A program made the translations under genes and the position numbers. A DNA stretch of 64,000 bases from a virus, in the IMG/VR virus record IMGVR_UViG_3300027782_000058, positions 1 through 64,000 of that record; one strand, written 5' to 3'. The notes beneath the pieces are model-generated. The model was not told the DNA's origin. It was given only the letters and a program-made list of their open reading frames with translations, and searched no databases. This document shows positions 8,129 to 34,633 of this stretch, piece after piece. Every line of letters begins with the position of its first letter. The stretch's first letter is position 1.

Positions 8129-8201
8129 CAAGAAATAATGGATAGGTGTAAGATCGCATCATCAAGACAACACAACGACAAACAACACTAGGGAGATAGA
8201 A

Positions 8202-8789
8202 ATGGGTTACTACGTCACACTTATTGCAGCAGACTTCACGATCCCCGAGACCCCCGAGGTTCTCGCGGCGATCCACGGCATGGACGTTCGCTTCGACGCG
8301 CTGAAGCGCGGCGGCGTGATCGGCGGGGATAAGCCGCAGGAGAAGTGGTTCTCATGGATGCCGAAGTTGGGCACGCTCACCAGCGTGCAGGAGGTGTTCG
8401 AAACGCTGGGCTTCGACACCGAGATCGACCCCGAGACCGGGAATGTCGGGCTTGTCGGGTACGACAACAAGACTGGACAGGAGGACTTGTTCCTCGCGGT
8501 GGTCGCGCCGTTCGTCAAGGACGGCTCGTACACGGTATGGCGTGGCGAGGACGGCATGTTGTGCCGATACGAGGTCACGGAAGGACGCCTTACCGTACGG
8601 AACTCTTTCGTCCAGTGGACCGAACCGGAGCCGTTTGCCATCGCGCACTATGGCTCTGTGGGATCGTTCAGGGATGGGACGTACCTTGGATTCTCGATCC
8701 TCGTGGACCCGTACAACGACGACGAGACCACGATCATGAACCTGATCGACGACCAGATTCAGGACTTGCGCGGCGCATCAAAGGTATGA
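8202..8789 (+). CDS. Hypothetical phage protein
   Basis: Promoter 8125; CTAGGGAG RBS; MGYY start and GSY..WRGEDG motif. Confidence 0.8.
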   Translation: MGYYVTLIAADFTIPETPEVLAAIHGMDVRFDALKRGGVIGGDKPQEKWFSWMPKLGTLTSVQEVFETLGFDTEIDPETGNVGLVGYDNKTGQEDLFLAVVAPFVKDGSYTVWRGEDGMLCRYEVTEGRLTVRNSFVQWTEPEPFAIAHYGSVGSFRDGTYLGFSILVDPYNDDETTIMNLIDDQIQDLRGASKV

Positions 8790-8876
8790 TAGATTGACCA
8801 TGCAAGACAACGACAAACGACACAACGACTAGGGAGGCAAGGAAATGCAGGTACCGACGCGAGTGGAGGTGGCGGC

Positions 8877-9290
8877 ATGAGCACCTACGTCGTCACCCTC
8901 GTGATTGAGGACGTTGGCCCGGACATGGGCAGTCCAGAATACTGGCCTTGGGCCGAGATGCTTGACTACCCCGGCGCGGTCATGAATGCGATTACGGAGG
9001 AGATTGAGTCTCACCCGACGCCGGAGCAGATCGACCTGTTCCAGCGGCTCACCAGTGACTACCGGCGAGCGATCAAGCAGGAAATGAGTCCGGCTCCTGA
9101 GGAGGAGGATGAGGACTCCGAGGTGATTAGCACATGGGAAATCTCCTATTCCACCAAGCCTGAATGGTGGGATGATGATTCGGAACCTCGCTGCGATGTA
9201 TGCGGAATGCATTGTGAGGAAGTCGAATGGTGTGGCGAATGCGGAAACTGCGTTTTGCACTGTGAGGGACGCGAAGAGGTGAAGGCATGA
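8877..9290 (+). CDS. Acidic protein with C-terminal Cys cluster
   Basis: CDVC...CGECGNC..HC. Confidence 0.7.
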   Translation: MSTYVVTLVIEDVGPDMGSPEYWPWAEMLDYPGAVMNAITEEIESHPTPEQIDLFQRLTSDYRRAIKQEMSPAPEEEDEDSEVISTWEISYSTKPEWWDDDSEPRCDVCGMHCEEVEWCGECGNCVLHCEGREEVKA

Positions 9291-9499
9291 ATACCAACTG
9301 CCTCGCGGGCATCGAGTGCCCCCAGTGCGGATCGGAGGGACCGTTCGCCATTGCAGTCACTGCGGTGGCCGTGATGCACGATGACGGATCGGAGTACGTC
9401 GAGAGCATCGAATGGACGAACACGTCGAACATCTCATGCATGACCTGCCACAACTACGGCATGGTCGGAGAGTTTGAGGCGCAACCAAATACCAACTGA
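9287..9499 (+). CDS. Zinc-ribbon protein
   Basis: NTNCLAGIECPQCG...CMTC. Confidence 0.75.
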   Translation: MNTNCLAGIECPQCGSEGPFAIAVTAVAVMHDDGSEYVESIEWTNTSNISCMTCHNYGMVGEFEAQPNTN

Positions 9500-9505
9500 C
9501 ACTCC

Positions 9506-9561
9506 CTAGAAAAACAGCCGGGGCAGGCTTGGAAAACTTGCCCCGGCTTTTCTAGTTTTTT
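9506..9561 (+). terminator. Intrinsic terminator
   Basis: AGCCGGGGCAG...CTTGCCCCGGCT stem followed by T-tracts. Confidence 0.8.
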
Positions 9562-9732
9562 GGGCGAGCGCGCCGGAGTGGAAAAAATCTTTGCGACGCC
9601 GTGATGAAGTGGGTCAAGGTAACGATTCGATAACGACAGCCGTTTCGATTAGACAGGTGTCATACCGGCATGGTACTGTTCTACATGTCAGCAAGACGCT
9701 GGCGAGACAAACGACACAGGGATGTGATCAGG

Positions 9733-9936
9733 TTGCAAAAGGACACAACGACTGCAGTCATCGCAAAGGAAGAGTACTGCGACTACTGCCAGATGAGCGG
9801 TACGAAGACCGTCGCCCTCTACGACGGCAAGACCACTCAGGGGGCGTGGGCCTACATGTGCGAGGACCACTTCAGCGACTACGGGGTCGGTATCGGTCTC
9901 GGACTCGGACAGATTCTGATCGTCGAGACGAGTTGA
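9733..9936 (+). CDS. Zinc-binding hypothetical protein
   Basis: CDYC...YDGKT..GAWAYMCEDHF..G.GIG.GLGQ. Confidence 0.75.
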   Translation: MQKDTTTAVIAKEEYCDYCQMSGTKTVALYDGKTTQGAWAYMCEDHFSDYGVGIGLGLGQILIVETS

Positions 9937-9961
9937 CAGAGACTCCGGAGGAGTGCTAGAA

Positions 9962-10025
9962 ATAGACCACTCCTCCCTAGGAGAAGGCAGGCCCCGGATC
10001 CCCCTCCGGGGCTTTGTCTTTTCCC
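9962..10025 (+). ncRNA. Candidate small RNA (promoter-terminator unit with no ORF) carrying CCUCCCUAGG
   Basis: TTGACA 9933 with -10 near 9957; CTCCT-ccct-AGGAG hairpin, then GCCCCGGA-tcccc-CTCCGGGGC hairpin with T-rich tail. Confidence 0.55.
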
Positions 10026-10129
10026 GAAGCAGAACGCGCGGAAAAAATCTTTACGGATGCGCGCCGCCTTGACAAGAAATAATGCAAGGTATAGTCTGGG
10101 CACTACAACAACCGAGAGAGGAGAAGCAC

Positions 10130-10267
10130 ATGAATGAGGAACTACGGAAACTAATCGCCAAGTTGCCGGAGCAGGCGGCCACCACTGGCCGCGACTTCGG
10201 TCGAGGGTACGCGCTCGCAGTCAGAGATGTGCTTGCCGTTCTCGATAGACTTGACACTCAAGAGTAA
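10130..10267 (+). CDS. Hypothetical miniprotein
   Basis: Promoter 10069; GAGGAG RBS. Confidence 0.65.
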   Translation: MNEELRKLIAKLPEQAATTGRDFGRGYALAVRDVLAVLDRLDTQE

Positions 10268-10309
10268 GTGCGATAGAGTTCATACATCAGAACGACACAC
10301 ACTAGGGAG

Positions 10310-10711
10310 GTGAATGACGTGATGAAAACAGATACGCGAGTGGAGTGCTACTGGAACCTCCACAAGAACTGCTTGTCGGCACGGCCTACGGTCAAAGGCG
10401 GCAAGGTATGGCACGCGGACATGGTGTGGCTCACGGATGTACGATTCGCGGTGCAGCCCGCTGGCAACGCCAAGGTGCGCGCCGAGGGACGCAAGAACGT
10501 CCACGCCTACGTTCGCGGTACGGTCGTGAACTGGCAGGGGCTGCTAGGCGGTGCTCCGGTCGACGCCGAGACGGTGGAACGTCTCGGCTGGGTGCGGGTG
10601 TCGTACAACCCCTACAGGTACGAATCGTTCGTGCTCGCTGCTACAGGTGAGCCGATCCTCGCAGCCCGTGAGGCGTTCATCGCCAGCAAGCAAATCTGGG
10701 CGCTGCTCTAA
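10310..10711 (+). CDS. Conserved hypothetical phage protein (start may be 10322)
   Basis: YWNLHK, KNVHAYVRG, SYNPY motifs; CTAGGGAG RBS. Confidence 0.8.
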   Translation: MNDVMKTDTRVECYWNLHKNCLSARPTVKGGKVWHADMVWLTDVRFAVQPAGNAKVRAEGRKNVHAYVRGTVVNWQGLLGGAPVDAETVERLGWVRVSYNPYRYESFVLAATGEPILAAREAFIASKQIWALL

Positions 10712-10720
10712 AAAGTCAAA

Positions 10721-10756
10721 AACGAAAAGGCGGGACTTCGGTCCCGCTTTTTCGTT
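10721..10756 (+). terminator. Intrinsic terminator (UUCG loop, possibly bidirectional)
   Basis: AACGAAAAGGCGGGAC-TTCG-GTCCCGCTTTTTCGTT. Confidence 0.9.
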
Positions 10757-10915
10757 GCGCGGACTCGGAAAAAATCTTTGCGCTCGCGCGCTAGCAACGT
10801 CTCGCGTTACTACTTTCCTGCCCCCGAAAACTCTCCTGCCGTTTGGACTTGCATCATAGAGAGATTCCTGCTATTCTCTCTAATGTCAGAACAACACCTA
10901 GGGAGGTAACAACCA

Positions 10916-11647
10916 GTGTCAACCACACTCAAGCGAAGCAAGGACCGGAAGGTCACCAACGCAGTGAACCCGAAGGGTACCGCCGCCTTCATTGCGAACA
11001 CCTTCGGACTCCCGTCCGGAAAGAATTACTCCTGCCCCGGTGCCACCGAGGTCTGCGAACTCATCTGCTACGCGGGCAAGTTGGAGATTATCTACAAGGG
11101 CGTGCGCGACGTGCTCACGCACAACTTCGACACGCTGCAGTCTCTTGATCAGGCTGGCATGGCCGAGGCTCTCTCGGGTATGGTGGCAGACTTCAAGGCC
11201 GACTCGGTCAAGCGTGGCGCGGACCTGCTGTTCCGCATTCACTGGGACGGGGACTTCTTCTCGGACGACTACGCGAGCGCGTGGGTCGCCGTGGTGCGCG
11301 AGCACTCGGACGTTCAATTCTGGGTCTACACGCGGGTCGTGAGCGCTGCAGTCATGATTCACAAGGCGGCGCTGCCGAACCTCTCGCTCTACTTCTCGGC
11401 AGACTCGGCTAACGCGCCGATTGCTGCCATGCTGAAGAAGACCTACGGCATGAACCTCGCGTGGCTCGCTGAGAACTTCCAGACGGGTCAGGCGGCGCTC
11501 AAGGAACTCACGGGCAAGCCGGGGGCGAAGTGCCCCGAGAATGCGGGCAGGCTCCCGCTGATCAGTGCCGAGGGATCGGCGTGCGTCCGGTGCGGACTCT
11601 GCGTCTTCGGCAAGGCTGACGTGGTGTTCAGCCGGTCCAAGAAGTAG
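10916..11647 (+). CDS. GP88-like Cys-rich (radical-SAM-like) protein
   Basis: FGLPSG..SCPGA..C...CYA, FRIHWDGDFF, FWVYTR, C..CGLC. Confidence 0.75.
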   Translation: MSTTLKRSKDRKVTNAVNPKGTAAFIANTFGLPSGKNYSCPGATEVCELICYAGKLEIIYKGVRDVLTHNFDTLQSLDQAGMAEALSGMVADFKADSVKRGADLLFRIHWDGDFFSDDYASAWVAVVREHSDVQFWVYTRVVSAAVMIHKAALPNLSLYFSADSANAPIAAMLKKTYGMNLAWLAENFQTGQAALKELTGKPGAKCPENAGRLPLISAEGSACVRCGLCVFGKADVVFSRSKK

Positions 11648-11739
11648 GACTTGACAGTGGGCCGGTAGGCGAGTAGACTTCACCTACCGGCTCACGGTCG
11701 GGAAAACAAAACGACAAACGACACAAGGGAGTGATCGAA

Positions 11740-12246
11740 GTGGGACTGAGAGACATTGCAAGCGCAGCAATCGAAGCCGAAGAGGCGAAGCAGAAGGCCG
11801 ACGAGAAGCGTTGGTGGAACGAGAACGCACGGGCAGGCGAGAGCATCGTGAAGGACTTGCTCGGCATCACCGGCAAGGCGGTACGAGCGCACAAGACGGA
11901 GCGGTCGGAATCCACTGGAGCGCAATGGGGGAATGGCACGGTAGTGGAACTTGAGGAGGGTGTGTGCGTCAAGGTGATGCACTGGATCCACAACACCACC
12001 GACCGATACGGATTCGTCACCGGAACCGAGACAACCAGAAGCCTTGAGTTGTGCGACCGAGAGGGACTCAACCTGCAGGCTACGGACGGTTCGTCGTTCT
12101 ACTCCCCGAAGTTCACGACACTCGCGGAGTTGGGGCACGCGCTCACGAAGTACGACGGGCAGGCGGCTGACAACAAAGCCGAGCGCGAGCGCCGAGCGCG
12201 AGCGCGAGAGGCAGCAGAGGCTAGGCTCGCAGCGAACGCCCGCTGA
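11740..12246 (+). CDS. Hypothetical protein
   Basis: Promoter 11651; CAAGGGAGTGATC RBS. Confidence 0.75.
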   Translation: MGLRDIASAAIEAEEAKQKADEKRWWNENARAGESIVKDLLGITGKAVRAHKTERSESTGAQWGNGTVVELEEGVCVKVMHWIHNTTDRYGFVTGTETTRSLELCDREGLNLQATDGSSFYSPKFTTLAELGHALTKYDGQAADNKAERERRARAREAAEARLAANAR

Positions 12247-12442
12247 GAATCACGCGGCCCCGATTCCACAAGGAGTCGGGGTCGCGTGCTCGCGCGCGCC
12301 TCGCGGCGTGCGGGAAAAAATCTTTACGACGCGGCGCGGGTACAACATAACGATTCGGTAACGACGGGCCTCTCAACTTGCGCTTCATCATAGAAGCGAG
12401 TAGAGTGTCCTTATCAGCACAAACAACTAGGAGGTGAAAGAT

Positions 12443-12757
12443 ATGGAAGGACTGACTACAAATGTCAAGGCTACTGTTGACCTGACAGGGAGACAGTGGG
12501 AAATCTTCTCGCCCGAGGTCATGGCCGAGGGAGGGGCATCAGACTTGGTGCAAGTGACGATCCACCACAACGAGTGCGTTACCGCACTCAATGCCGCTGC
12601 CACTGAGGCTCTCTCCTGCGGAAACCCCCGCGAAGCGTGGGAAATCTTCGGGAAGGCTCAGCGCGAGTGGGCGCACTTCGGTGCCGAGGACTCCGAGCCA
12701 ACGTGGAAGTTCACGCGGCTCATGCGCGAGGTATTCGGCAACGACTGCGGGTACTAG
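12443..12757 (+). CDS. Hypothetical protein
   Basis: CTAGGAGG RBS; FGAEDSEP motif. Confidence 0.75.
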   Translation: MEGLTTNVKATVDLTGRQWEIFSPEVMAEGGASDLVQVTIHHNECVTALNAAATEALSCGNPREAWEIFGKAQREWAHFGAEDSEPTWKFTRLMREVFGNDCGY

Positions 12758-12877
12758 GTCACAGAAAGATAACGATCCAAAGAAACACCCCGTCTGGGCT
12801 TGCAGATGTCAGACCAAACGTGTAATGTTCTACTTACCGGCAGATAGCCGGAAACGACGAAAGAGGGAGTGATCCAA

Positions 12878-13216: not shown

Positions 13217-13402
13217 CCCGAGGAGGGCGGGGTCGGGAGAAATCCCGGCCCCGTCCTTCCGCGTTTTGAGCGCGGGCCGCAGGAAAAAATCTTTGGGGTC
13301 GCTAGGCGGAAAACTTTCTGAGGCGTAGGACTTGCGCTTGTCACAGAAGTTTGGTACTGTTTGACTACTCGCAGGGAGCGAGCACAAACTAGGGATGAAC
13401 AC

Positions 13403-14579: not shown

Positions 14580-14597
14580 GACCTAGGGAGAAATGAA

Positions 14598-15656
14598 ATG
14601 ACACACACTACACTTGTCGAGAAGTACCGCCCTCTGGGCAACCTTGACCCCTCTGGGGTATCGCTCTACGAGCGCCTCATGGAGGTGTCTCTGCTCGCTG
14701 GCGATGAGAACGCTGCCATGCGGCTCAATGCTCAGGTGCTGCCTCAGGGACGCTATGCAGAGCGCGTGGCTGCTCGTCCTCGCGTGGCTGCTGCCACTGC
14801 TGCTGCTCTCGCGGGTGGCCCTGTCATCGCTAGTGGTGATGACGTGTTCGTCCGGCCCAATGGTGAGCAGTACCACGCTCGCTCATGGGGTGAGCATCAG
14901 GACGTGATGGTCCTCCGCAAGGCGCGTGAGCAGACCAAGAAGGCTTACCTCTCAGGTGGGTCTCCTATGTTCACGCTGATCTACGGGGAGCCCGGCTGCG
15001 GCAAGACTGCGCTCGTGGAGGCAGCGTTCGGGAGCGATCTCTACACGCTCATGGGCACTGGCGACACTGAGGTCTCCGACCTCACGGGAGGCTATGTCCA
15101 GACCCCGAGTGGCACGTTCGTCTGGATCAATGGCGACATGATTCGCGCCGCCATCGAGGGCAAGGTCTACTTCATTGACGAGATCGGACTGGTTGACTCC
15201 AAGGTTCTGTCGATCCTCTACGGACTCATGGATGGACGCCGCGAGATCACTGTCAATGCCAACCTTGAGATGGGTTCGATCAAGGCCCACCCTGACTTCT
15301 ACGTCGTGGCTGCCACCAACCCCAACGCCCCCGGCGTTCGGCTCTCTGAGGCTCTCCTGTCGCGCTTCACCAATCAGGTGGAGATGACGACTGACTGGTC
15401 GCTCGCTCGCAAGTTGGGCGTCCCGACGACTGTCGTCACGGCAGCGCAGAACCTCAACAAGAAGCGCGACTCGCAGGAGTGCATGTGGGCTCCGCAGATG
15501 CGAGAGTTGCTCGCCTTCCGCGACATTGCGGAGACGTTCGGACTCAAGTTCGCGATCTCTAACCTGCTCGCTGCTGCACCTGAGATCGACCGGCCCATCG
15601 TGGCTGACGTTCTCACGCGGGTGTTCGGCGATGAGTGCAAGCCCGCCAAGATCTGA
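14598..15656 (+). CDS. MoxR/CbbQ-like AAA+ ATPase
   Basis: Walker A GEPGCGKT, Walker B YFIDEI, sensor ATNP, ALLSRF arginine finger. Confidence 0.92.
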   Translation: MTHTTLVEKYRPLGNLDPSGVSLYERLMEVSLLAGDENAAMRLNAQVLPQGRYAERVAARPRVAAATAAALAGGPVIASGDDVFVRPNGEQYHARSWGEHQDVMVLRKAREQTKKAYLSGGSPMFTLIYGEPGCGKTALVEAAFGSDLYTLMGTGDTEVSDLTGGYVQTPSGTFVWINGDMIRAAIEGKVYFIDEIGLVDSKVLSILYGLMDGRREITVNANLEMGSIKAHPDFYVVAATNPNAPGVRLSEALLSRFTNQVEMTTDWSLARKLGVPTTVVTAAQNLNKKRDSQECMWAPQMRELLAFRDIAETFGLKFAISNLLAAAPEIDRPIVADVLTRVFGDECKPAKI

Positions 15657-15798
15657 TCCCTAGCGGATCTTGGCGCTGGGTCGGGGAGTCGTTTGGGTGC
15701 GGCTCCCCGGCCCACCTAGGGAAGAATTGACAGCATCATAGACACCTGCTACTATCGTACTAATGCCGCAGGGAGCGGCCAACGACAGGAGAGACATA

Positions 15799-17646: not shown

Positions 17647-17782
17647 GACTTCCGACCGGGGTGGCAACCTCTCCCTAGGTGTGTGCCAACGCGCCGCCCC
17701 GGTCGGTCGATCAACTTGACAGATGCTCTCTAGAGGAGTACCTTGTATCTATAAGCGAACGACAACAGGAAGAGAGACAGCA

Positions 17783-18913: not shown

Positions 18914-19050
18914 GCGAGAAAAAAAGTTTGGTGTCGCACTTCATCGCACTGTGGAAAACTCGATCCGATCTCGACTTGACAACGACTCTCTAATCAGGTA
19001 AGTTTAGTCCTGTCAGCAAGACCGCTGGCACAGACACTAGGGAGATCAAA

Positions 19051-19359: not shown

Positions 19360-19642
19360 CGTTTCTGAAAAAATCAGAAAAGCCCCGTCCAAAAAATCTT
19401 TGGAGCCCCGACTTCGACAGCACACAAAACAAAAGACCCCCGCCCGTAGGCGAGGGTCTTTTCCCCGCTGCCACGGTCACCGCCCCCCCTGTGGGGCGAT
19501 GAAAACCTACTGGAGTGGGAGTGCCCGCTCTGCGGCTACGGGGACACGTTCGATCCCCACGCCTAACAGAACTTGACAGCAGCCCTGAACTATGATTAGA
19601 TATACATATCGGCAGGGAGCCGAAGCCACTAGGGAGGCAGAC

Positions 19643-19807: not shown

Positions 19808-19918
19808 CCAACTCAGTGGCCCCCGCGAAAGCGGGGGCTACTCCGGTCAACTTGACACATGAACGAATCTGTGGTTGAATATACCTATACAGAACGACAC
19901 CAACTAGGGAGGCCCCAA

Positions 19919-20071: not shown

Positions 20072-20287
20072 GGGCAGGGCCAATGGACGTGAAGACGAAG
20101 GCGCTAGAGGCGCAGGAAAAAATCTTTGGACTCCGGGTCAGTCGGCTCGCTTACGATCAAGAGTTGACAAGACTCAGGAAGTATGCTTAAATAGCACTAT
20201 CAACAAAGCACAACCCCGCACCGTGACCCCTTCGGGGGAGACCGCCACACAAGCAGGGTGCATGAGGTTCTAGGACAGAGATGCACC

Positions 20288-20368
20288 GCTCCCATAGCGC
20301 GCTGGTTGCGCGACATGTGCAAGACGAGCAAGAGCATGGTAGGTGGGTTCGATTCCCGCATGGGTGGC
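20288..20368 (+). ncRNA. tRNA-like element at the 3' end of an ORF-less transcript (about 20195-20408)
   Basis: D-arm GCGC-GCTGGTT-GCGC; T-arm GTGGG-TTCGATT-CCCGC; acceptor-like CCCAT/ATGGG; aberrant anticodon arm; no CCA; promoter 20164; terminator 20370-20408. Confidence 0.6.
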
Positions 20369-20539
20369 TGGAAAAACTGGGCAGTGATCCTGTCCAGTTT
20401 TTCCTTTTGGGGGAGGAAGGAAAAAATCTTTACTCAGCACTCCTTCGCCGCCGGGAATCTTGACAACTGTCAGAGACCTATGCTTTAATGTACATGTCGG
20501 CAGGGAGCCGACAACCAAACGCCTAGGGAGGCGACAGAA

Positions 20540-20827
20540 GTGCAGACCACTAACCTCGACAAGAAGAACCGTTCTTGGTGCGCGTTCGAAGCCCTGTTCA
20601 TGCGTTACGAGCGGTCGGGGCGCAACGAGACCCTGCTCCCTCGCATGGCCATGCAGTCGGCTTTCGAGTGGGCGATGGACAGTGCGGAGCGCAAGGAGTT
20701 CTACGAGATGATCCTCTTCGCCGCGCAGACAGAGATCGAGGGCGACTACATGCTCCTCAATGAGGAGACCGGCGAGTACGAGTGGGCCACCGAGGAGCAG
20801 GCGAACGAGAGCCGCTGGAGGGCGTAG
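20540..20827 (+). CDS. Hypothetical protein
   Basis: Promoter 20460; CTAGGGAG RBS. Confidence 0.75.
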   Translation: MQTTNLDKKNRSWCAFEALFMRYERSGRNETLLPRMAMQSAFEWAMDSAERKEFYEMILFAAQTEIEGDYMLLNEETGEYEWATEEQANESRWRA

Positions 20828-20954
20828 GGCGGCGGGCAGGGTCGCTCCCTAGCGGCCCTGCCCATTCCTCTCGCCGACAGAAGTTGACAGCACTACAGAA
20901 GTATGGTTAGATAGAGATATCGGCAGGGAGCCGAAACGACACAAGGAGCCAAAG

Positions 20955-21639: not shown

Positions 21640-21749
21640 GCCGGGAGGGGAGCCGAGGAAACTTGGCTCCCCAACCTACTTGACATCTGCTCAAAAGTAC
21701 GGTTGGATAGAGATATCGGCAGGGAGCCGAAAGAACCTAGGGAGCCAAG

Positions 21750-22150: not shown

Positions 22151-22387
22151 ATGCCTGACCTAATGAACGCACCGCCCACCGACCGAGTGATCCTCGCCGT
22201 TACCGCACTTCACATGGAGTGGGAGGCAGCAGACAAGAACTTCACAGAGAGCATGGTGGAGGACACTGCTAAACGCTGGAGCCTGTCTGAGGAAGAGGCT
22301 GAGGACATCGCCAACTTCCTCTGTGAATTCGTCATGGACATGCGGGCTGATGCCGAGGATGATGGATTCGAAGGGGACGAAGACTAA
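22151..22387 (+). CDS. Acidic hypothetical protein
   Basis: AAGGAG RBS; very acidic. Confidence 0.7.
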   Translation: MPDLMNAPPTDRVILAVTALHMEWEAADKNFTESMVEDTAKRWSLSEEEAEDIANFLCEFVMDMRADAEDDGFEGDED

Positions 22388-22691
22388 CAAGAGGCGTAAG
22401 CCGTGAGTGCGCTTGTGCGGGAAAGATGGATATGCTTATGACCCGCTAACCACGGCAGCAGGAGGTGTTGGCGAACTCCCTGCGCTGATCCTGTCGAGAA
22501 GCCCCCGGACTCATACTCCGGGGGTCTTTCGTTTTCTTCCTCTGCTCGCCGGGTGACGGGGTAAAGATTTTTTCCTCTCGCGTGGAAACTGACCCGCGAT
22601 GGCTTCGCAATAGAACTTGACAACTGCTTCTCAAAGGAGTAACGTATGTCTTGTCGCTCCAACCGGGGGCGCGCGCCCAAGGGAGGCACCC

Positions 22692-22964
22692 ATGTCCGAC
22701 AGCCGCTACTCCAACGCCGCGCTTCGCGCGGACCTCAACTCCACCTCGCGCGGTCCCCGCGTGCGGGCAGAGATCCTGCTCACCGTGCCCGAGGAGGTGC
22801 GCGCGGAACTTAGCGCAGAAGCGTGGACACTCGGTAACCTGCGTAACGGTGGCCGACCCTCTGACGACCTGCGCGAGGCCGTCCGCGTCTGGCGTGAGAC
22901 CGGGAAGTTCCCCGCCCGCGCCTACGCGGCAGAGTGGCGCGAGCGCAATCAGCGTCGCTTCTGA
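22692..22964 (+). CDS. Hypothetical protein
   Basis: Promoter 22616; CAAGGGAGG RBS; terminator 22975-23005. Confidence 0.75.
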   Translation: MSDSRYSNAALRADLNSTSRGPRVRAEILLTVPEEVRAELSAEAWTLGNLRNGGRPSDDLREAVRVWRETGKFPARAYAAEWRERNQRRF

Positions 22965-23046
22965 TCCGCAAGCGAAGGGACTCCCCTCCGGGGGAGTCCC
23001 TTTCGTATGCCCGGAGCAGTTAGGAAAATTCTTTGATACACTCGCG

Positions 23047-23140
23047 GTGTCTGCTTGAGCAACTCCCTATGCTCGTGGACACAGGTGGGACCCCCGCCGC
23101 GACTAGCGCCGTCACTCCCTAGACGGCGCTAGTTGCTTTA
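23047..23140. ncRNA. Candidate structured RNA with two identical ACUCCCUA hairpin loops
   Basis: GAGCA-actcccta-TGCTC (23057-23074) and ACTAGCGCCGTC-actcccta-GACGGCGCTAGT (23102-23133); TACACT -10 at 23037; no ORF. Confidence 0.65.
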
Positions 23141-23170
23141 CAGGGTTCTTTTCTGGGATATGGTTCCGAC

Positions 23171-23422
23171 ATGAGCGAATACCAAATTGTGGACCGAGCG
23201 TTTCATCATAACGGGAACGCGGTGCCGTTCGTCGCTGCACTTGTTGACGACGCCGAGAACGATGACGTAAAACTGGTCATCATGTTCGAGGACGAGGATT
23301 ACACCGCAGTTTTCTCACTCGACCGACTTCTTGATGATGAGGACATCTCAGCCAAGACCAACTCGTGGAGCGGTAGTCGATTCGAGTTTCTTCGAGACCT
23401 GCTCTGGAACGACGAGAACTAG
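23171..23422 (+). CDS. Hypothetical protein
   Basis: FHHNGN..PF motif; acidic. Confidence 0.7.
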   Translation: MSEYQIVDRAFHHNGNAVPFVAALVDDAENDDVKLVIMFEDEDYTAVFSLDRLLDDEDISAKTNSWSGSRFEFLRDLLWNDEN

Positions 23423-23429
23423 CCCGCCC

Positions 23430-24002
23430 ATGACTACCATCGCCGCGATTCAGGGAAAGAACTTCGCTGTTGTCGGATTCGATTCGATGGTCACGGAAGA
23501 CAACGGCAGGTTTTTCACACTCCCATCGGACATGCCAAAGGTTGTCAAAGACGAGAACTGCCTGTTTGGAGCATCCGGAGACCTGAGGTTGATCAACCTG
23601 CTTTCGATCTCCAACTTCGACAAGCCGATGGAAAGTTTTAAAGGCCGAGCACTCGATGTCTGGGTAGGCGGAATCTTCATCCCAGAACTCAGAGAAGTCT
23701 TGGAAGAAGGGCTTCCGTCTGAGAAAGAAGGCTCCTACGAGGGAACCATCATCGCGGTCTTTAATGGAGTCATCTACGAGGTAGGCCCTAACTACGAGTG
23801 GATCCGTTCGACGAACGGACTTTACGCACTCGGCTCCGGCGGAAGTTACGCGCTCGGGAACCTTCAGGCTGCGGAGCCGGGGATCTACAAAAATTCTTTA
23901 CTCGCTGAGCAGGCCGTCCGCCGAGCGGTAAAGGCAGCGATCAAGTACGACTATCGATCTCGCGGGCCGGTTCGGGCTCTTACCGTTCATGCCCCGGCTT
24001 GA
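23430..24002 (+). CDS. Proteasome-beta/HslV-like Ntn threonine protease
   Basis: N-terminal MTTIAA (Thr1 nucleophile), GFDS, KV, GASGD, ALGSGGSYALG, A..YD..SRGP. Confidence 0.85.
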   Translation: MTTIAAIQGKNFAVVGFDSMVTEDNGRFFTLPSDMPKVVKDENCLFGASGDLRLINLLSISNFDKPMESFKGRALDVWVGGIFIPELREVLEEGLPSEKEGSYEGTIIAVFNGVIYEVGPNYEWIRSTNGLYALGSGGSYALGNLQAAEPGIYKNSLLAEQAVRRAVKAAIKYDYRSRGPVRALTVHAPA

Positions 24003-26835: not shown

Positions 26836-26857
26836 CCCCTCTCATGGAGAAGCCGCC

Positions 26858-27777: not shown

Positions 27778-27940
27778 TGTCTCACCTCCCTAGGGTGTCT
27801 GCCGGGGTTTTCCCGGTCAGGAGTAAAACTACCCTAGATCGAGTCAAAAGTCAAATCGAGGGTAGGACTTGCGAATGTCAGAGAACTAGGGTACTCTGAT
27901 CCCATACCCCGAAGACACGGGGCAGAACTAGGGAGGCACA

Positions 27941-28171: not shown

Positions 28172-28313
28172 GCGCGAGAGGTTGCCCCGGCCTACGGGTC
28201 GGGGCTTCCCGCCCCCGTCAGGAAACAATTCCGGCGTAAGACTTGCGATCCGATCCAAAGTAGGGTATCTTCGTACTACCGCCCCAAACGGGGGCCAAAC
28301 TAGGGAGGTCACA

Positions 28314-28957: not shown

Positions 28958-29179
28958 CCGCGCGCCTAGCGAGAAGCCTCATCCCTACGGGGGATGGGGC
29001 TTTTCGCATTCCCGTCGCGAGTCGAGGACGCCGCCGGAAAAAATCTTTGCCTCGCCCCCGCGCGGCCCCGCCCCCGGACGAATGGAAAGGCTTCACTCGA
29101 AAGAACTTGACACCTGTCATAGGACTGGTATAAGGTGTGTATACATCCCAGAGAGGGGTGCCACTAGGGAGGTGGGAAG

Positions 29180-29595: not shown

Positions 29596-29940
29596 ATGAC
29601 GACCACCACCGTCCTCGAACTTGTGGAGGACTACATGCAGGCAATCCGCGAGGCTACGGCCAAGTACTACGCGGACAACTACCACCACCTTCAGCCCCCG
29701 ATGATCTATGCGGAGCCGGGTCGCCGGTTCGCCCGCATCGTGATGGAAGGCTCGAATCAGCGTACGGTCCACGCTTTCGTGGACATGGAGACCGGCGACG
29801 TGATCAAGGCTGCAGGCTGGAAGGCCCCGCAGAAGGACAAGGACGGCCTCGCGGTTCGCTACCACCTCGCCGATGAGGCTGATCGCGCGCGGTGCTACGC
29901 GGCCATCGACCCTCACGGTGGATACCTCTACAAGTGGTAG
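29596..29940 (+). CDS. Conserved hypothetical phage protein
   Basis: GRRFARIV...VHAFVDMETGDVIKAAGWKAP. Confidence 0.8.
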   Translation: MTTTTVLELVEDYMQAIREATAKYYADNYHHLQPPMIYAEPGRRFARIVMEGSNQRTVHAFVDMETGDVIKAAGWKAPQKDKDGLAVRYHLADEADRARCYAAIDPHGGYLYKW

Positions 29941-30207
29941 CCCTCACGAAGTACGGCCCCCACCTACGGGTGGGGGCTTTTCGTTTTCGCGCGACGGGAG
30001 GACTGGTAACCCTCTCGCCGAAAGGCCCTCGCCGAAAGGCGGGGGCCTTTTCGCGTGCGAATGCGGGCCGGGTGATGGGAGGTGGCGAAACTTTTTTTCC
30101 GGTCATCGCGCGCGAGGTCGCTACGCGCGGGACAACTTGACACTCGGTAGGATGTTCGATAAGGTAGGACTACCGCCCAACCGGGGCGCACAACCTAGGG
30201 AGTCGAA

Positions 30208-30456
30208 ATGTCCGTCACCACCGTCACCACCTACGCAATCTCCTACACCGCCACTAACCGTAGCGGCGCGGTCCACACCTACGTTCTGTCAGACCTTGAC
30301 ACCGCCGGTATCGGCGAGGTCATCGCTTCCATGTACGCGCAACGGGATGACTGGTACTGCCGCAACGTCACCATTGCCACGATGGGCGGTCAGGTTGTCT
30401 ACACGTTCGATGGCACCCCGCACGCCGCTACCGTGGCGAGCGTTCTCTCTCGCTAG
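30208..30456 (+). CDS. Hypothetical protein
   Basis: Promoter 30137; CTAGGGAG RBS. Confidence 0.75.
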   Translation: MSVTTVTTYAISYTATNRSGAVHTYVLSDLDTAGIGEVIASMYAQRDDWYCRNVTIATMGGQVVYTFDGTPHAATVASVLSR

Positions 30457-30590
30457 TCACGTCCTAGGCCCCGGCCCTCACCCTGCGAAAGGGTGGGGGC
30501 TGGCTGGCTTTCCGGCCCATATCGCCATGCGGCGGGCTAGATACAATGGCTTGACATTCCTTGCGCGCCCTACCCTGCCGGAGGCCCACC

Positions 30591-30761
30591 GTGCCGTTTC
30601 GCACGTCGTGCGAGCAATGCGAGGGAGTCGCCACCGTGCTAGTGGCGGGCGGTCGCGCGCACGCGCAATGCCTGCCGCTGCCGGTGGACTTGACGCGGCT
30701 CGCTGCCATGCCGCGACTTCCGGATGGGATCCCGTGGCGGTGCCCGTGGTGCGGCGCTTGA
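30591..30761 (+). CDS. Zinc-finger miniprotein
   Basis: GGAGG RBS; CEQC...CPWC. Confidence 0.5.
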   Translation: MPFRTSCEQCEGVATVLVAGGRAHAQCLPLPVDLTRLAAMPRLPDGIPWRCPWCGA

Positions 30762-30969
30762 AACTTTTTTTCCTCACCTACGCGCACACGGCAGGACATC
30801 GGGAGTGCTCGGGCTACCGCGACTTCGAGACTTTGCGCGAAAGTCTGCCGTAAGGCTCTCAGACTTGACATGACTTGACGCATAGGGCTCTCATGACTTG
30901 ACAAACGTTCGGATTCGAGTAAACTGGGCACACCGGCCCACAAGGGGCCGCAACCGAAGGGACACCGAC

Positions 30970-31500
30970 ATGACCACCTACGCCCCCCGCACCCGCGTCG
31001 CCCGCCCCGCGACCGACCGTCAGGTTGCGTACGCCGAGGCGCTGCTGCTGCAGGTCACCGGCCCTGACAACTTTGACGAGGCCCGCCTCGCGCTCGCCGA
31101 GCGGGGTGGACTCGCCACGGTTGACGCGGCGTCGCGCACTATCGACGCCCTGCGGACGCAGGCCGCTGCCATGCGGACGCAGGCCCCTCGCGCCGCTGCC
31201 CCTCGCGCCGCTGCCACTGAGGCCCTCGCACTGGGCATGTACCGCCGTGACGGTGAGGTCTACCGCGTAGTCGCCTCGCGGGCCGGTCGCCCGTACGCTA
31301 AGCGCCTTGACCCGGCCACGGGTAAGTTTGACTACGCGGCGGGCGCGATCCGCACGCTCACCGCTGCGGACCGTATGAGCCTCTCCGAGGCTGCCGAGTA
31401 CGGTCGGGCCATCGGTCGGTGTTGCGTATGTGGCGCGACGCTCACCGACCCCGAGTCGGTCGCCCGTGGCATCGGCCCCGTGTGCGGGGGGCGAGTCTGA
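30970..31500 (+). CDS. DUF6011-like zinc-finger protein (paralog of 26275-26835)
   Basis: ATDRQVAY; CCVCGATLTDPESVARGIGPVC. Confidence 0.82.
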   Translation: MTTYAPRTRVARPATDRQVAYAEALLLQVTGPDNFDEARLALAERGGLATVDAASRTIDALRTQAAAMRTQAPRAAAPRAAATEALALGMYRRDGEVYRVVASRAGRPYAKRLDPATGKFDYAAGAIRTLTAADRMSLSEAAEYGRAIGRCCVCGATLTDPESVARGIGPVCGGRV

Positions 31501-31741
31501 GGCCCCGAGCGCGAGAGGCCCCATCCCTTCGGGGGTGGGGCCTTCGTCATGTCGTGCGGATCACGCGCGAGCGGCGAGCGGCAGGCGAGAAAAAATCTTT
31601 GCCCTGCCCCCGTCGGGCGTGGAGTCGCGAGAGGTCGCGCGAGTGGTGAGATTCCCTTCCGAGATTCGACTTGACATGCCGCACGAGGTACGTCATACTG
31701 GAGGCATGCCGCAAGGCGCGGCAGCACCTAGGGAGGCAATC

Positions 31742-31987
31742 ATGACCGACTACACCACGATCACCGGAACCCGCGAGGGTGTTCGCGCCTACTACTCCGA
31801 GATTGCCCCCGGAGTGTGGGAGGCGGAGATTGAGTGGCAGGACGACTACGCTCGCGGTGTCTGGCACAACGCCGGTTGCGTTACGTTCACCAGTGAGCCC
31901 GACCTCGCCGCCATCGTGAGCGCGGTACAGTCCTACTGCTCCGATCAATACGACCGCGAAATGGAGTACCGCTCCACAAAACACTGA
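31742..31987 (+). CDS. Hypothetical protein
   Basis: Promoter 31671; CTAGGGAG RBS. Confidence 0.75.
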   Translation: MTDYTTITGTREGVRAYYSEIAPGVWEAEIEWQDDYARGVWHNAGCVTFTSEPDLAAIVSAVQSYCSDQYDREMEYRSTKH

Positions 31988-32217
31988 CACCCGAAAGATG
32001 CCCCGCCCCGAAAGGGTGCGGGGCATCTTTGCGTTTGGGATTGACAATCCGGCGCGCGAGGGGCACCGCCGCACCGTGGAAAAAATCTTTGCCCACGGGG
32101 CGGTCGGGAGTCGCGCGCGGACTGCGAACCATGCCGATGCACTTGACTTGACACTGCCTTAGATCCGAGTAAACTGGGACTACCGCCCCGGCAGGGGGCC
32201 ACACCTAGGGAGACCAA

Positions 32218-32556
32218 ATGTCCACTGTCATCGCCACCGCCACCCCCACGTCCGCCGCTATCTCGGACGGCATCGTGCGGGCAAGTGTCGACCTTATGGG
32301 ACGCAACCGTGAGGGGCGTCAGGAATGGCGCTACAGCATCGCCTGCGAGTCCGAGGCTCAGACTGGCACCGACCTGCGGACGGGAGTTGGGGCCACAGAG
32401 ACTGGCGTCGACATGCTCCGTACCCTCGCGGGATTCCTCGCGGCACACTCCGAGTCCTCCGAGGGCGGCGAGTGTGCGGACCTGTTCGATATCTCGCGAG
32501 AGGCTACGGAGGCCATCTCCGAGGTCATCTACTACGCGGTCGGGTGGGATGCCTGA
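32218..32556 (+). CDS. Hypothetical protein
   Basis: Promoter 32148; CTAGGGAG RBS. Confidence 0.78.
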   Translation: MSTVIATATPTSAAISDGIVRASVDLMGRNREGRQEWRYSIACESEAQTGTDLRTGVGATETGVDMLRTLAGFLAAHSESSEGGECADLFDISREATEAISEVIYYAVGWDA

Positions 32557-32772
32557 CCCGAACGTTCTGAAAGGCCCCGCATCCGAAAGAGCGCGGGGCC
32601 TTTCGCATTGCGCGGGGAGCGCGCGCGGTGGAATCGGAAAAAATCTTTAGACCGCCGCCCCGCCCGTCGCCACGCGCCCATCGCCCGGTCCCGATAGAAC
32701 TTGACAACGCTCGCAGAATCCGGCATACTAGATCCATGCCGCAGGGAGCGGCACTAATCAAGGGAGACTGAA

Positions 32773-32910
32773 ATGACCTTCGCAATCGCCTACACCGTGA
32801 ACACCGAGAACATCGTCCTGTCGGGCCTTGACTCGCAGGGGCTTATCGATGCCGTGCTCTACTCGGCTCAATACGGCCCCATCACGAACGTCACGGTGTC
32901 GTCCTACTGA
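32773..32910 (+). CDS. Miniprotein (45 aa), similar to 30208-30456
   Basis: Promoter 32701; CAAGGGAG RBS; FAIAYT..VLSGLD..NVTV. Confidence 0.7.
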   Translation: MTFAIAYTVNTENIVLSGLDSQGLIDAVLYSAQYGPITNVTVSSY

Positions 32911-33039
32911 CAGGCACCGCGCGAGACCCCGGCCCTTACGGGTCGGGGTCTTTCGCTTTCTAGGGGGCTTGACAACGTGACTCAAACTAGTAGACTGGGG
33001 CTACGCCCCGATACGCGGGGCCTGACCTAGGGAGTCACA

Positions 33040-33177
33040 ATGGCCGTTATGACCACAGAGTGGATCTGTTCCTCATGCCGTACCGTGTGGGTGAGTGAGG
33101 ACTACCCGCTTTGCCCGGAGTGCCGCACGGATGAGTGCGCGCTCACGCGCGAGGCGTGGGTTAGGTGGGTACGATGA
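33040..33177 (+). CDS. Zinc-ribbon miniprotein (45 aa)
   Basis: CTAGGGAG RBS; CSSC...CPEC. Confidence 0.7.
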   Translation: MAVMTTEWICSSCRTVWVSEDYPLCPECRTDECALTREAWVRWVR

Positions 33178-33485
33178 CCACCACCCGCAACGCAAACGCC
33201 GCTATCGCGTCGTGCGAGACGTTCCGCGCGTCGGCCCTGTCGGGAGTCACCACGGTGCCCGGTGCGGGTCGCCTTGACGGTGCCGACCGTGATCGGTTCT
33301 ACGCCGACCGGGACGCTATCGCCTACGCGGTTATGTCCTACGGCACGCCTATCGCGTGGCTCACGCCGCGCGGGTGGCACGTCGTGGGCCAGCGTTTCAG
33401 CGTCACCACTTCACGACACCAGAGCGTCACCTTGCGGGGCGTGCGCGAGTGGTGCGAACGGTCGGGAGTCACTTGCGTTTGGTGA
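33174..33485 (+). CDS. Conserved hypothetical phage protein
   Basis: YAVMSYGTPIAW...SVTTSRHQ; ATGA overlap. Confidence 0.8.
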   Translation: MTTTRNANAAIASCETFRASALSGVTTVPGAGRLDGADRDRFYADRDAIAYAVMSYGTPIAWLTPRGWHVVGQRFSVTTSRHQSVTLRGVREWCERSGVTCVW

Positions 33486-33799
33486 CCCGCTAGCCTCCGA
33501 GTGAGAGCCCTGCCCCGTTTGAGGGGGGTGGGGCTCTCGCCGTTTCGCGCGCGGCGTGCGGGCGCTCGACGAAAAAAATCTTTACCCCCCCGGTGTTTGG
33601 CTCGACGGACTACCGAGAGGTGGTCGGGGTCTTCACTTGTCTCCCGGCGGGGTGCGGGGCGGGGCGCGCCCACCCGTGACGCTCTCGGGGCGCTATCAAA
33701 CCGTGACCTAGAAACTTGCGGGAAGTGTTGACAGTCTCCCCAAACTCTGACAAACTAGAGGCATGCCCCAAACGGGGGCACCACCTAGGGAGGCACCAA

Positions 33800-33907
33800 A
33801 TGTCACTCACCACCACCACCGCCTACACGGTCACTAGCCTCTGGGATGACGACCTAGAGGACGCACTCTGTGAGTGCGTTGCCGATGACTGCCCCCTAGA
33901 TCACTAG
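33800..33907 (+). CDS. 35-aa peptide
   Basis: Promoter 33728; CTAGGGAG RBS; CEC...CPLDH. Confidence 0.6.
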   Translation: MSLTTTTAYTVTSLWDDDLEDALCECVADDCPLDH

Positions 33908-34026
33908 GGGGCAAGCGGGCAGGGGCACCCTACGGGGTGCCCCTTTCGTTGCCCGGCGGGGGTGCGCGGCGGGCGTCCGGAAACTTTTTTTCGTGCCTCG
34001 CGCCCCAGCGGCACGGCACGGCCTAC

Positions 34027-34067
34027 GGCAGGGCAGGGCAGGGGCAGGGCAGGGCAGGGCAGGGGGG
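34027..34067 (+). repeat. (GGGCA)n tract, G-quadruplex-capable
   Basis: GGCAGGGCAGGGCAGGGGCAGGGCAGGGCAGGGCAGGGGGG; related (GCGGCAGG)4 at 34493-34530. Confidence 0.85.
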
Positions 34068-34185
34068 TGACGATGACCGTTATAGAACCGTGACCAAAAC
34101 TTGCGAGACTGGCTTGACACTTGGCAGGCAACTACGGTACTTTCGTTGTATGCCGCAAAGGGCGGCACCAACTAGGGAGGCACCA

Positions 34186-34446
34186 ATGTCCAACTACACC
34201 TTCACCACCAACACCCCGTTCGTCAACGTCTCTGTCGGTCCGCGTACCGATGTTGCTCAGTACATCTTCCACCTCGCCAACGGGGACAGTATCAGCGTTC
34301 TCCCCGCCTACGACCCTGCCGACTTCGAGTCGGCGTACATCCCCGCCGGGGACACGTCCGGACGTTGGGATGTTCGTAGGTGGGACGGCACCGACGCCTC
34401 CCCTGAGAGCGTGGCCCTCGCGCACCTCGCGGCACTCACCGCCTGA
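34186..34446 (+). CDS. Hypothetical protein
   Basis: Promoter 34114; CTAGGGAG RBS. Confidence 0.75.
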   Translation: MSNYTFTTNTPFVNVSVGPRTDVAQYIFHLANGDSISVLPAYDPADFESAYIPAGDTSGRWDVRRWDGTDASPESVALAHLAALTA

Positions 34447-34633
34447 CCCTCGCTCACTGGAAGGCCCTCGCTACGGCGGGGGCCTTCCTCATGCGGCAGG
34501 GCGGCAGGGCGGCAGGGCGGCAGGGCGGGGCCTCCCGAAAAAGTTTGCCGGTAGGTCTTGCCATCCGATTCGAAGTACGGTACTTTTACCTCAGCGCCCC
34601 AAAAGGGGCCACAACCTAACCTAGGGAGACACA

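Follow-up and report, generated by a model that had tools for sequence, protein, structure and literature searches.

Putative early genes of a metagenomic phage share a start-associated ribosome-site word, and a conserved small RNA carries its complement in two loops

Introduction

The virus record IMGVR_UViG_3300027782_000058 is a 91,079-bp contig of 56.8% G+C that is classed in IMG/VR as a linear virus of ~54% completeness, and its first 64 kb are the stretch of DNA analyzed here (the window). In the window one eight-nucleotide word, CTAGGGAG, stands directly in front of some twenty genes and its complement recurs in the DNA between genes. This raises the question of whether the two belong to a single regulatory system, in which an RNA displaying the complement would act on many ribosome-binding sites (RBSs) at once. 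We describe the word, the cassette of promoter and leader that it belongs to, and a conserved and covarying small RNA (sRNA) with the exact complement in two of its loops, and we then weigh what the sRNA might act upon.

The + strand carries nearly all genes of the window. Many small genes with gaps between them occupy the region from 5 to 35 kb, with products that include a MoxR-like AAA ATPase, a CobT/vWA-like protein, a histone-deacetylase-like protein, a GP88-family protein and an HslV-like peptidase, and the head and tail genes begin at ~36 kb. We infer from position and promoter type only that the genes of this region are early, host-takeover genes, and "early" is used below in that sense. 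Genes were called with our own simple codon-usage caller, and transcription starts are predictions from promoter consensus only. Among named phages the nearest is Actinomycetia phage DSL-LC01, which comes from lake water and has a CobT-like protein of 46% amino acid (aa) identity. Metagenomic relatives, some of which are referred to below by L numbers, run into the hundreds as judged by an alignment-based scan of viral contigs. Neither a single-protein scan of viral contigs nor a megablast comparison of the early region with GenBank phages gave a match, and a cassette-pattern scan returned mostly single chance matches and no new close relatives.

One ribosome-site word in front of separately promoted early genes

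Counted on both strands of the window, CTAGGGAG is present 27 times (20 copies on the + strand and seven on the − strand), against 1.54 ± 1.31 copies in shuffled sequence (~0.8 per strand), in which the largest count was six. All of the + strand copies are within 8188–34628, there are no further copies in the remaining 27 kb of the contig, and none of the genes beyond 35 kb on the 91-kb contig, structural genes included, has the word in front of it. These results agree with the first-pass annotation of this DNA, which had listed the same 20 + strand positions and one − strand copy (located here at 27786–27793) as a shared RBS of about 20 early genes, and had not seen it before late genes. Nineteen of the 20 + strand copies are followed after 5–10 nt by an ATG, GTG or TTG that opens an open reading frame (ORF) of 35–352 aa (Table 1). 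The other, at 8829, precedes an 11-codon ORF (8845–8880) whose stop overlaps, as ATGA, the start of a 137-aa gene at 8877, which is a layout typical of translational coupling.

The word is part of a larger cassette that went beyond the first-pass description: a host-type promoter (CTTGACA-N17-TAnnnT), a short leader, CTAGGGAG and the start codon. By eye, (C)TTGACA or TTGCGA, a 16–18-nt spacer and a TAnnnT hexamer were recognized upstream of 18–19 of the 20 copies, and a strict automated parse found a sigma-70-like promoter at 15 of them. The predicted leaders are 20–35 nt long and come in three styles, which are CA-rich (cagaacgacacaca), those with a GC hairpin at the 5′ end (e.g. GCCCC-aaac-GGGGC) and those with a hairpin of the form CGG-CAGGGAG-CCG; the loop CAGGGAG is found in seven leaders, on stems that differ in sequence. 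The 8-mer is exact in all 20 + strand copies although the flanks have diverged. The same cassette is present in the two relatives L002 and L083, with 21 and 17–18 copies of the word and a neighboring CobT-like protein that is only 62% identical; these two and the window phage are the three members of the clade that shares CTAGGGAG.

Spacing from the word to the start codon is fixed at 5–10 nt, whereas the distance from the −10 element varies (~20–35 nt). The 5′ CU of the word is invariant and would not pair with the 3′ tail of 16S rRNA (a generic actinobacterial tail, which may not be that of the host) but would pair with the sRNA loop. CTAGGGAG is best read as an extended, standardised ribosome-binding word of the start-associated-sequence kind. 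Other genes have sites of the usual sort (GGAGG, AGGAG or AAGGA) or carry a different leader that is also repeated, ACGACACAAGGGAGTGATC. The latter is found before the starts at 7468, 11740 and 12878, with variants before 9733 and 28598, and is a near-full complement of the generic 16S tail, GAUC included; in distant relatives AACGACGAAAGGACA is repeated in its place.

A conserved small RNA with the complement in two loops

The sRNA is a structured element of three hairpins (Table 1), and both of its ACUCCCUA loops have an unpaired probability of ~1.0. The fold of 23046–23150 has a free energy of −57.1 kcal/mol (z = −6.4), compared to −49.7 kcal/mol (z = −3.96) for the reverse strand, and the unit has no + strand ORF of 40 aa or more. 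Since the operon upstream is closed by the hairpin at 22974–23003, the sRNA would be a separate unit. The A-tract and extended −10 layout of its predicted promoter is common to every close homologue and, as this type (extended −10, A-tract, no −35) differs from that of the cassettes, it would allow a different timing of the sRNA.

A covariance model that was seeded on two sequences (window and L002) and rebuilt from five identified 18 distinct members at E < 0.005, as well as several weaker ones, all of them on the strand of the flanking genes. Each of the 15 members that were checked is upstream of the same gene pair, encoding an acidic 66-aa protein and the HslV-like peptidase. In L002 the stem of hairpin 3 is identical and hairpin 1 has two compensatory and four G:U-preserved changes. 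In the 18-member alignment, which was fitted to the covariance model and so leans towards it, 93% of cells pair and both partners have changed in 24 of 25 pairs; none of 500 shuffles reached the observed pairing, slid controls gave 40–53%, and folds made independently of the model have the same architecture. Approximately 52 of the 413 alignment cells (about one in eight, summed by row) are G:U pairs, which would be A–C mismatches on the other strand. These pairs, the orientation of promoter and terminator, and the position of all homologues on the gene strand fit a + functional strand and argue against the alternative offered in the first-pass annotation, that the hairpins are transcribed from the − strand as decoys. 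No Rfam family matches the sRNA, and the exact pattern of hairpin 3 was found among viral contigs in the L002 contig only.

The first-pass annotation had reasoned that its proposal would fail if relatives kept the stems and not the loops. The reverse was seen, as the stems of 23047–23140 covary and the C-rich loops are kept. Although the stems are replaced entirely, the loop of hairpin 3 remains rich in pyrimidines, with UCCCU at its center in most members, the variants being ACUCCCUA, CCUCCCUA, CUCCCUA(G), AUCCCUA, ACUCCCUG, CCUCCCUG, ACCCCUA and CUCUCCC. A CUCCC loop on hairpin 1 is found only in clades with the CUAGGG leader word, and in L083. GAUGAGG and a CUACCY loop, which are further single-stranded pieces conserved in the sRNA, bear no match to the RBS.

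Two features of the surroundings of the sRNA are recorded here. The gene pair (23222–24002) directly follows the sRNA in about half of the relatives; its 66-aa product is strongly conserved, is always paired with the HslV-like peptidase gene and was considered as ribosomal protein bS21, an identity that was rejected because the protein is acidic and has no Pfam match. An intergenic repeat, GGAAAAAATCTTT(A/G)C, occurs between 2238 and 33584 in 17 + and two − copies, all intergenic (e.g. 9583, 10043, 12316, 20422 and 32081) and in most cases located after a terminator and ahead of the promoter that follows. The upstream part of the sRNA promoter is a variant of this repeat, and the equivalent box of relatives is GG(G)TAAAAA.

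Complementary copies outside the small RNA

All six intergenic sites at which the first-pass annotation had noted the complement are present, as CTCCCTAG at 9502, 9973, 17671, 20845 and 23115 and as CTCCCTA at 23063. The early intergenic DNA (~10 kb) has six copies of CTCCCTAG, one of which is the − strand ribosome site, against an expectation of 0.13 (shuffles) to 0.39 (third-order Markov), which is an enrichment of ~15–45-fold. Further copies, beyond those six, are one at 42904, which is probably due to chance and outside the system, a one-mismatch loop ATCCCTAG at 15656 and a loop ACTCCCTG at 22476; read as RNA, these two near copies in hairpin loops are AUCCCUAG and ACUCCCUG, respectively.

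The complement copies sit at the 3′ ends of + strand transcription units or in the ORF-less unit. Those at 17671 and 20845 are in the apex of terminator-like hairpins and those at 9502 and 9973 are directly before terminators, where the word is single-stranded or half within the extended terminator stem, just 5′ of the terminator. The earlier description of the copies as lying nearly always in or across hairpin loops is thus correct for 23063, 23115 and 17671, partly so for 20845 (only CCCU is in the loop) and not for 9502 and 9973. The two latter sites read better as elements of 3′ untranslated regions (UTRs): the promoter that had been assigned by eye to a separate 9973 unit is weak, in that its −10 (TAGAAA) has no final T and was not called by the promoter scan, and we rejected it. 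Several copies recur in relatives. The 9502 copy is kept after the homologous zinc-ribbon-like gene at L002:3840 and L083:4180, there in a small hairpin loop before the terminator, L002 (CCUCCCUG) and L083 (UCUCCCG) retain a C-rich apex on the hairpin that follows the CobT-like gene, and the loop GAUCCCUAGC is found on a different stem in the homologous ATPase hairpin at L002:9834–9867. The 3′ UTR copies may be UTR-derived seeds, or their partner may be the 5′ word on their own transcript, in cis.

We also considered whether the complement copies are simply ribosome sites of small antisense genes, and rejected this. No start codon is within range of the − strand copies at 9980, 20852 and 23122, that at 9509 has only a 13-codon ORF (plus a 43-codon one at 13 nt), and that at 17678 is 3 nt before a 635-codon antisense shadow ORF. 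As there are no usable − strand starts, the complement copies, 27786 aside, are not ribosome sites of − strand genes.

In L002 (6049–6096) and L083 (5270–5300) the promoter of the homologue of the 19919 gene has the complement within its −35/−10 spacer, as CTCCCTAG and CCTCCTAG, respectively, with the cassette's own CTAGGGAG ~35 nt further on. In these phages the spacer complement could fold onto CTAGGGAG in a read-through transcript; the window's copy of this promoter has no complement.

Loop and leader pairing, and their co-variation between clades

Predicted duplexes between the sRNA loop and the leaders of CTAGGGAG genes have a mean of −14.4 kcal/mol, versus −10.7 when the 16S tail is paired with the same leaders and −5.8 when the loops are shuffled, so the pairing that the first-pass annotation had proposed to compute is predicted to be stronger than that of 16S rRNA with the RBS. 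The loop would also pair over 7–8 nt with the second leader class, GGGAGUGA.

The words in loops and leaders were then compared between loci. All eight loci with the loop UCCCUAG, which belong to two separate clades, are enriched for CTAGGGA (3–24 copies vs ~1.6 expected). In the low-GC clade among them (L036, L045, L050, L052, L057 and L058) the hairpin-3 loop is (C/A)UCCCUAG and the leaders are CTAGGGAAAGGA..ATG, with CUAGGG just 5′ of a different Shine-Dalgarno core. Loci with the loop CUCCCUG (L003, L085 and L092) have 0–2 copies of CTAGGGA (~1.6 expected) and have CAGGGAG at their ribosome sites in 7, 4 and 3 copies, respectively, vs ~1.7 (e.g. ACGACACAGGGAGAA..ATG). CTAGGGA is found in 0–1 copies at the eight loci without a detected RNA, and neither word is present where the loop is of another type or no RNA was detected. 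The CobT-like protein, in a quick tree, places the two UCCCUAG clades apart, with other loop types between them. These comparisons are suggestive of loop and leader words that have changed or persisted together at least twice.

Distant relatives keep the RNA with no matching ribosome word. The sRNA therefore predates the standardised RBS, has a wider distribution than it, and must have another, older function or other targets. The first-pass proposal is thus supported in part, in that loop and leader words change jointly between clades, but its view that the phage standardised its RBS to suit one RNA would, as relatives with GAAAGGA-type sites keep a C-rich loop, apply to this clade only.

A possible translational switch

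The most likely role of the sRNA, at about even odds, is repression of early translation through base pairing of its loops with ribosome sites. In such a mechanism the sRNA loops would form 8–9 bp with CUAGGGAG and would also pair with those leader hairpins that have a CAGGGAG loop, as might the several 3′ UTR and terminator hairpins that display the same C-rich word. Pairing would occlude the ribosome site, so that many early mRNAs would be repressed together, and would need no chaperone, in the manner of actinobacterial 6C and firmicute RsaE/RoxS. We infer transcription and timing of the sRNA, its pairing in the cell and the direction of the effect. More tentatively, and at rather less than even probability, this freshwater actinobacterial phage lineage may have a global translational switch of two co-evolving parts: a start-associated word (CUAGGGA/G, or CAGGGAG in the sister clade) at the ribosome sites and in the leader loops of dozens of separately promoted early genes, and a dedicated phage sRNA whose two seed loops carry the exact complement, helped by the 3′ UTR seeds.

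Several observations weigh against repression by pairing, or temper it. The co-variation involves few independent clades and a quick, unfinished tree, and the pair counts carry the lean noted above. There are clades with the loops CUCUCCCC or ACCCCUAG in which the matching word is not enriched and the dominant ribosome word, ACGACGAAAGGA, mismatches the loop; GAAAGGA, the commonest ribosome word of the distant relatives, likewise mismatches their loop. L083 keeps CTAGGGAG, while its hairpin-3 loop has lost UAG, which leaves only AGGGAGG to pair. Any strong Shine-Dalgarno sequence would give some match between a G-rich site and a C-rich loop. When every hairpin with a stem of at least 6 bp was scanned crudely, C-rich loops were not in excess over G-rich ones; a general excess of C-rich loops was therefore rejected and only the specific word is enriched. 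Hairpin 3 in the window has no textbook U-tract (homologues have runs of 4–6 U), and a terminator scan called 9989–10014 and not 23099–23136. Lastly, an RNA made alongside its targets would require a further timing signal in order to be a switch.

Alternative explanations

The retention of the RNA and its C-rich loops in clades whose ribosome word mismatches them would be expected if the main targets were host mRNAs with G-rich ribosome sites, the RNA being a phage mimic of a host 6C-type RNA for takeover. The match to CUAGGGAG in the phage would then be secondary, with abundant early mRNAs serving, for instance, as a sponge that delays the action of the RNA. Consistent with such a role, 6C represses many host genes via G-rich ribosome sites (PMC6486639), and L003:13487–13560 matches Rfam 6C near threshold (46 bits, gathering 47). 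However, the exact 8–9-nt match includes CUA, which is outside the Shine-Dalgarno sequence, there are ~20 phage copies of it, and the CUAGGGAG-type match tracks the loop type in two clades. We therefore regard host mRNAs as an unlikely main target, although this is the alternative that we take most seriously. A position 70–1300 nt upstream of the same gene pair at 15 of 15 loci, a terminator-like hairpin 3 and the conserved GAUGAGG and CUACCY loop, which mismatch the RBS, could alternatively indicate a cis-acting or protein-binding RNA of the 66-aa/HslV-like operon (an attenuator or a protein scaffold) whose likeness to an RBS complement is incidental. We consider this improbable, given that about half of the loci have an extra gene between RNA and operon, that a further promoter or terminator intervenes in L002, L083, L003 and the window, and that the CUCCCUAG copies in 3′ UTRs and the co-variation of leader and loop would be left unexplained.

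The word and its complement might also be read as double-stranded DNA sites for a phage or host protein, similar to the stoperators of Cluster A mycobacteriophages or to the extended start-associated-sequence (ESAS) repeats that precede such words, with CTAG as a palindromic core and with function in both orientations. Like stoperators, the motif is confined to intergenic DNA and has a strong orientation bias, a promoter spacer holds the complement or something close to it at L002:6055 and L083:5292, and the −10 of distant relatives stands within an inverted repeat made of a G-rich box and its complement. We judge this very unlikely, because it is the start-codon spacing that is fixed (5–10 nt) and not that of the −10 (~20–35 nt), and because complements in the loops of covarying, G:U-rich stems are a signature of RNA and not of DNA. 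Least probable of all, in our estimation, is that there is no special regulation, a strong RBS having been copied together with its cassette and the complements being chance or ordinary terminator loops. The cassettes are clearly of common descent or design and strong Shine-Dalgarno sequences are frequent in phages, but copying would not account for an 8-mer that is exact in 20 of 20 copies despite diverged flanks, and likewise in two phages with a neighbor protein 62% identical, or for a complement that is enriched 15–45-fold and is within a conserved RNA.

Comparison with known systems

The closest parallel to CTAGGGAG is the start-associated sequence (SAS) of Cluster K mycobacteriophages, the reader of which was left open as "RNA or protein" (PMC3203893). 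SAS elements are asymmetric, contain the Shine-Dalgarno core and exceed what it needs, lie a few nt before starts in 10–20 copies, are found only at non-structural genes in nearly one orientation, often have an upstream inverted repeat, and include some positions that cannot pair with 16S rRNA (PMC3203893, PMC7302621). The word described here is likewise conserved, asymmetric and longer than its Shine-Dalgarno core, 5–10 nt before starts, and limited to non-structural genes that are nearly all in one orientation. With the SAS consensus sequences GGGATAGGAGCCC (Cluster K mycobacteriophages) and GGGAAAGGACCCC (Cluster EF Microbacterium phages), however, it has only the purine core in common, which suggests the same kind of element and not the same family by descent. 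There are three other differences. Copies of CTAGGGAG are tied to sigma-70-type promoters; the upstream hairpins are variable in sequence, whereas ESAS repeats have a consensus; and there is here a candidate reader, an RNA with the exact complement in its loops, whereas SAS is without a known reader.

The sRNA itself is reminiscent of 6C RNA of actinobacteria, whose C-rich loops pair with G-rich ribosome sites without a chaperone (PMC6486639). Both have hairpins with C-rich loops (ACUCCCUA twice here), a likeness that is functional only. The loops here are CUCCCUA and not runs of C, the RNA is encoded by the phage, in synteny with a phage operon, and it matches best the leaders of that phage. 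No 6C (Rfam RF01066) was found at the gathering score in the window, at E ≤ 10 in 22900–23300 or at E ≤ 5 in 5000–37000. The near-threshold match in L003, on the + strand, has two hairpins with the loops GCCCCCC and CUCCCCC and is ~1.1 kb upstream of the L003 copy of the new sRNA; it indicates that C-rich-loop RNAs occur in this phage group.

RNAs with several loop-exposed seeds of the UCCC type, each able to block a ribosome site, are also known from Firmicutes (RsaE/RoxS and RNAIII), but these are host-encoded, have metabolic or virulence targets and are unrelated in sequence and structure. Phage precedents are the c4 RNA of P1/P7 and the CI RNA of P4, structured sRNAs whose loops pair with boxes at or near the ribosome site of phage mRNA and shut off expression. 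Those act on one operon in temperate phages, whereas ~20–25 separate transcription units would be reached here through one word, if it is paired. Early genes of T4 have a feature of their ribosome sites in common (GGAG for RegB), through which a single factor, RegB or RegA, can silence them together; there the factor is a protein (a nuclease or a repressor), and there is no complementary RNA. The stoperators of Cluster A mycobacteriophages, asymmetric sites on double-stranded DNA to which a repressor binds, differ in that they are placed by transcription, while CTAGGGAG is placed by the start codon.

Table 1. Positions of the ribosome-site word, leader hairpins, small RNA and complementary copies in the window
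Feature	Position	Strand	Remarks
CTAGGGAG	8188–8195	+	ATG 6 nt on, 195-aa ORF; promoter TTGACA-18-TAAGAT at 8125–8154
CTAGGGAG	8829–8836	+	11-codon leader ORF overlapping (ATGA) gene at 8877
CTAGGGAG	10302–10309	+	GTG 9 nt or ATG 12 nt on; 129–130 aa
CTAGGGAG	10898–10905	+	GTG 10 nt on; 243 aa (Pfam GP88)
CTAGGGAG	14583–14590	+	within operon, lacking a separate promoter; 352 aa, MoxR-like AAA ATPase
CTAGGGAG	19037–19044	+	89-aa ORF
CTAGGGAG	19629–19636	+	54-aa ORF; 5′ leader hairpin, loop CAGGGAG (19613)
CTAGGGAG	19904–19911	+	50-aa ORF
CTAGGGAG	20523–20530	+	95-aa ORF; leader hairpin, loop CAGGGAG (20501)
CTAGGGAG	21737–21744	+	62-aa ORF; leader hairpin, loop CAGGGAG (21720)
CTAGGGAG	27928–27935	+	76-aa ORF; GC hairpin at 5′ end of leader
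CTAGGGAG	28300–28307	+	71-aa ORF
CTAGGGAG	29164–29171	+	94 aa, TTG start
CTAGGGAG	30195–30202	+	82 aa
CTAGGGAG	31728–31735	+	81 aa
CTAGGGAG	32205–32212	+	112 aa
CTAGGGAG	33027–33034	+	45 aa
CTAGGGAG	33785–33792	+	35 aa
CTAGGGAG	34172–34179	+	86 aa
CTAGGGAG	34621–34628	+	75 aa
Cassette with CTAGGGAG	27786–27793	−	TTGACT −35, TAGTTT −10, leader hairpin, GTG 8 nt on, 119 aa
Leader hairpin loop CAGGGAG	13372–13378	+	stem CUCG/CGAG
Leader hairpin loop CAGGGAG	15769–15775	+	stem GCCG/CGGC
Leader hairpin loop CAGGGAG	20924–20930	+	stem CGG/CCG; gene with AAGGAG RBS
Leader hairpin loop CAGGGAG	32742–32748	+	stem GCCG/CGGC
Terminator-like hairpin ending the upstream operon	22974–23003	+	
Predicted promoter of sRNA	23023–23042	+	A-tract box GGAAAATTCTTT, then extended −10 TG-A-TACACT (23034–23042)
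Structured sRNA, ~100 nt	23047–23136	+	U-rich tail to ~23150
Hairpin 1	23047–23082	+	13 bp, interrupted; loop ACUCCCUA at 23062–23069
Middle hairpin, short	23084–23098	+	
Hairpin 3	23099–23136	+	15-bp stem; loop ACUCCCUA at 23114–23121
Promoter-like TTTACA-16-TATGGT after hairpin 3	23137–23164	+	for acidic 66-aa and HslV-like peptidase genes
CUCCCUAG in 3′ UTR	9502–9509	+	2 nt past stop of 70-aa zinc-ribbon-like gene; terminator 9506–9555
CUCCUCCCUAG, single-stranded	9973–9980	+	5′ of terminator 9989–10014; this phage only; own promoter doubtful
Hairpin over ATPase stop codon	15644–15675	+	loop GAUCCCUAGC (one mismatch)
Branched terminator-like hairpin after CobT/vWA-like gene	17652–17706	+	CUCCCU in apical loop (17671–17678)
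3′ UTR hairpin of gene 20540–20827	20834–20863	+	CUCCCUAG spans apex, loop CCCU
Hairpin loop AACUCCCUG	22467–22489	+	ORF-less 3′ region of gene 22151–22387, then terminator; complements CAGGGAG
CTCCCTAG	42904–42911	+	inside 3121-aa ORF

Other features of the window and its relatives

In the low-GC relatives L036, L045 and L072 many promoters are inside an inverted repeat, TTTTACCCC ... CTATATAT ... GGGGTAAAA (e.g. L036:16208–16245), so that the −10 element has a G-rich box on one side and the complement of that box on the other. A box that is frequent in distant relatives, GGGTAAAA, was considered as a ribosome word and rejected, as it is mostly an A-tract promoter box and often half of the −10 inverted repeat. 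The 468 nt at 20072–20539 have no ORF and include a tRNA T-arm-like sequence, GGGTTCGATTCCCGC; a tRNA there (T-arm-like GGGTTCGATTCCC) was rejected, since ARAGORN found no tRNA or tmRNA. Between the early array and the head genes, at 35409–35480, are G-rich repeats (GGCAGGG units, then a run of GAGAGAGA). The 3121-aa ORF had raised the idea of N4-type hairpin promoters, which was also rejected because Pfam identified no RNA polymerase and the promoters are of the sigma-70 type.

Implications

The new RNA family, with at least 18 members, strong covariation and no counterpart in Rfam, is solid even if its targets are host mRNAs, and it would serve in the annotation of metagenomic phages. SAS elements have been known in actinobacteriophages since 2011 without a known reader or function, and the comparable word described here has a candidate RNA partner. 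If the pairing is true, a single RNA would control many independent phage genes post-transcriptionally, and a phage example would join the chaperone-independent, C-rich-loop sRNAs of high-GC bacteria. If, further, the two-part switch is true, the reader of SAS-type motifs would be an RNA.

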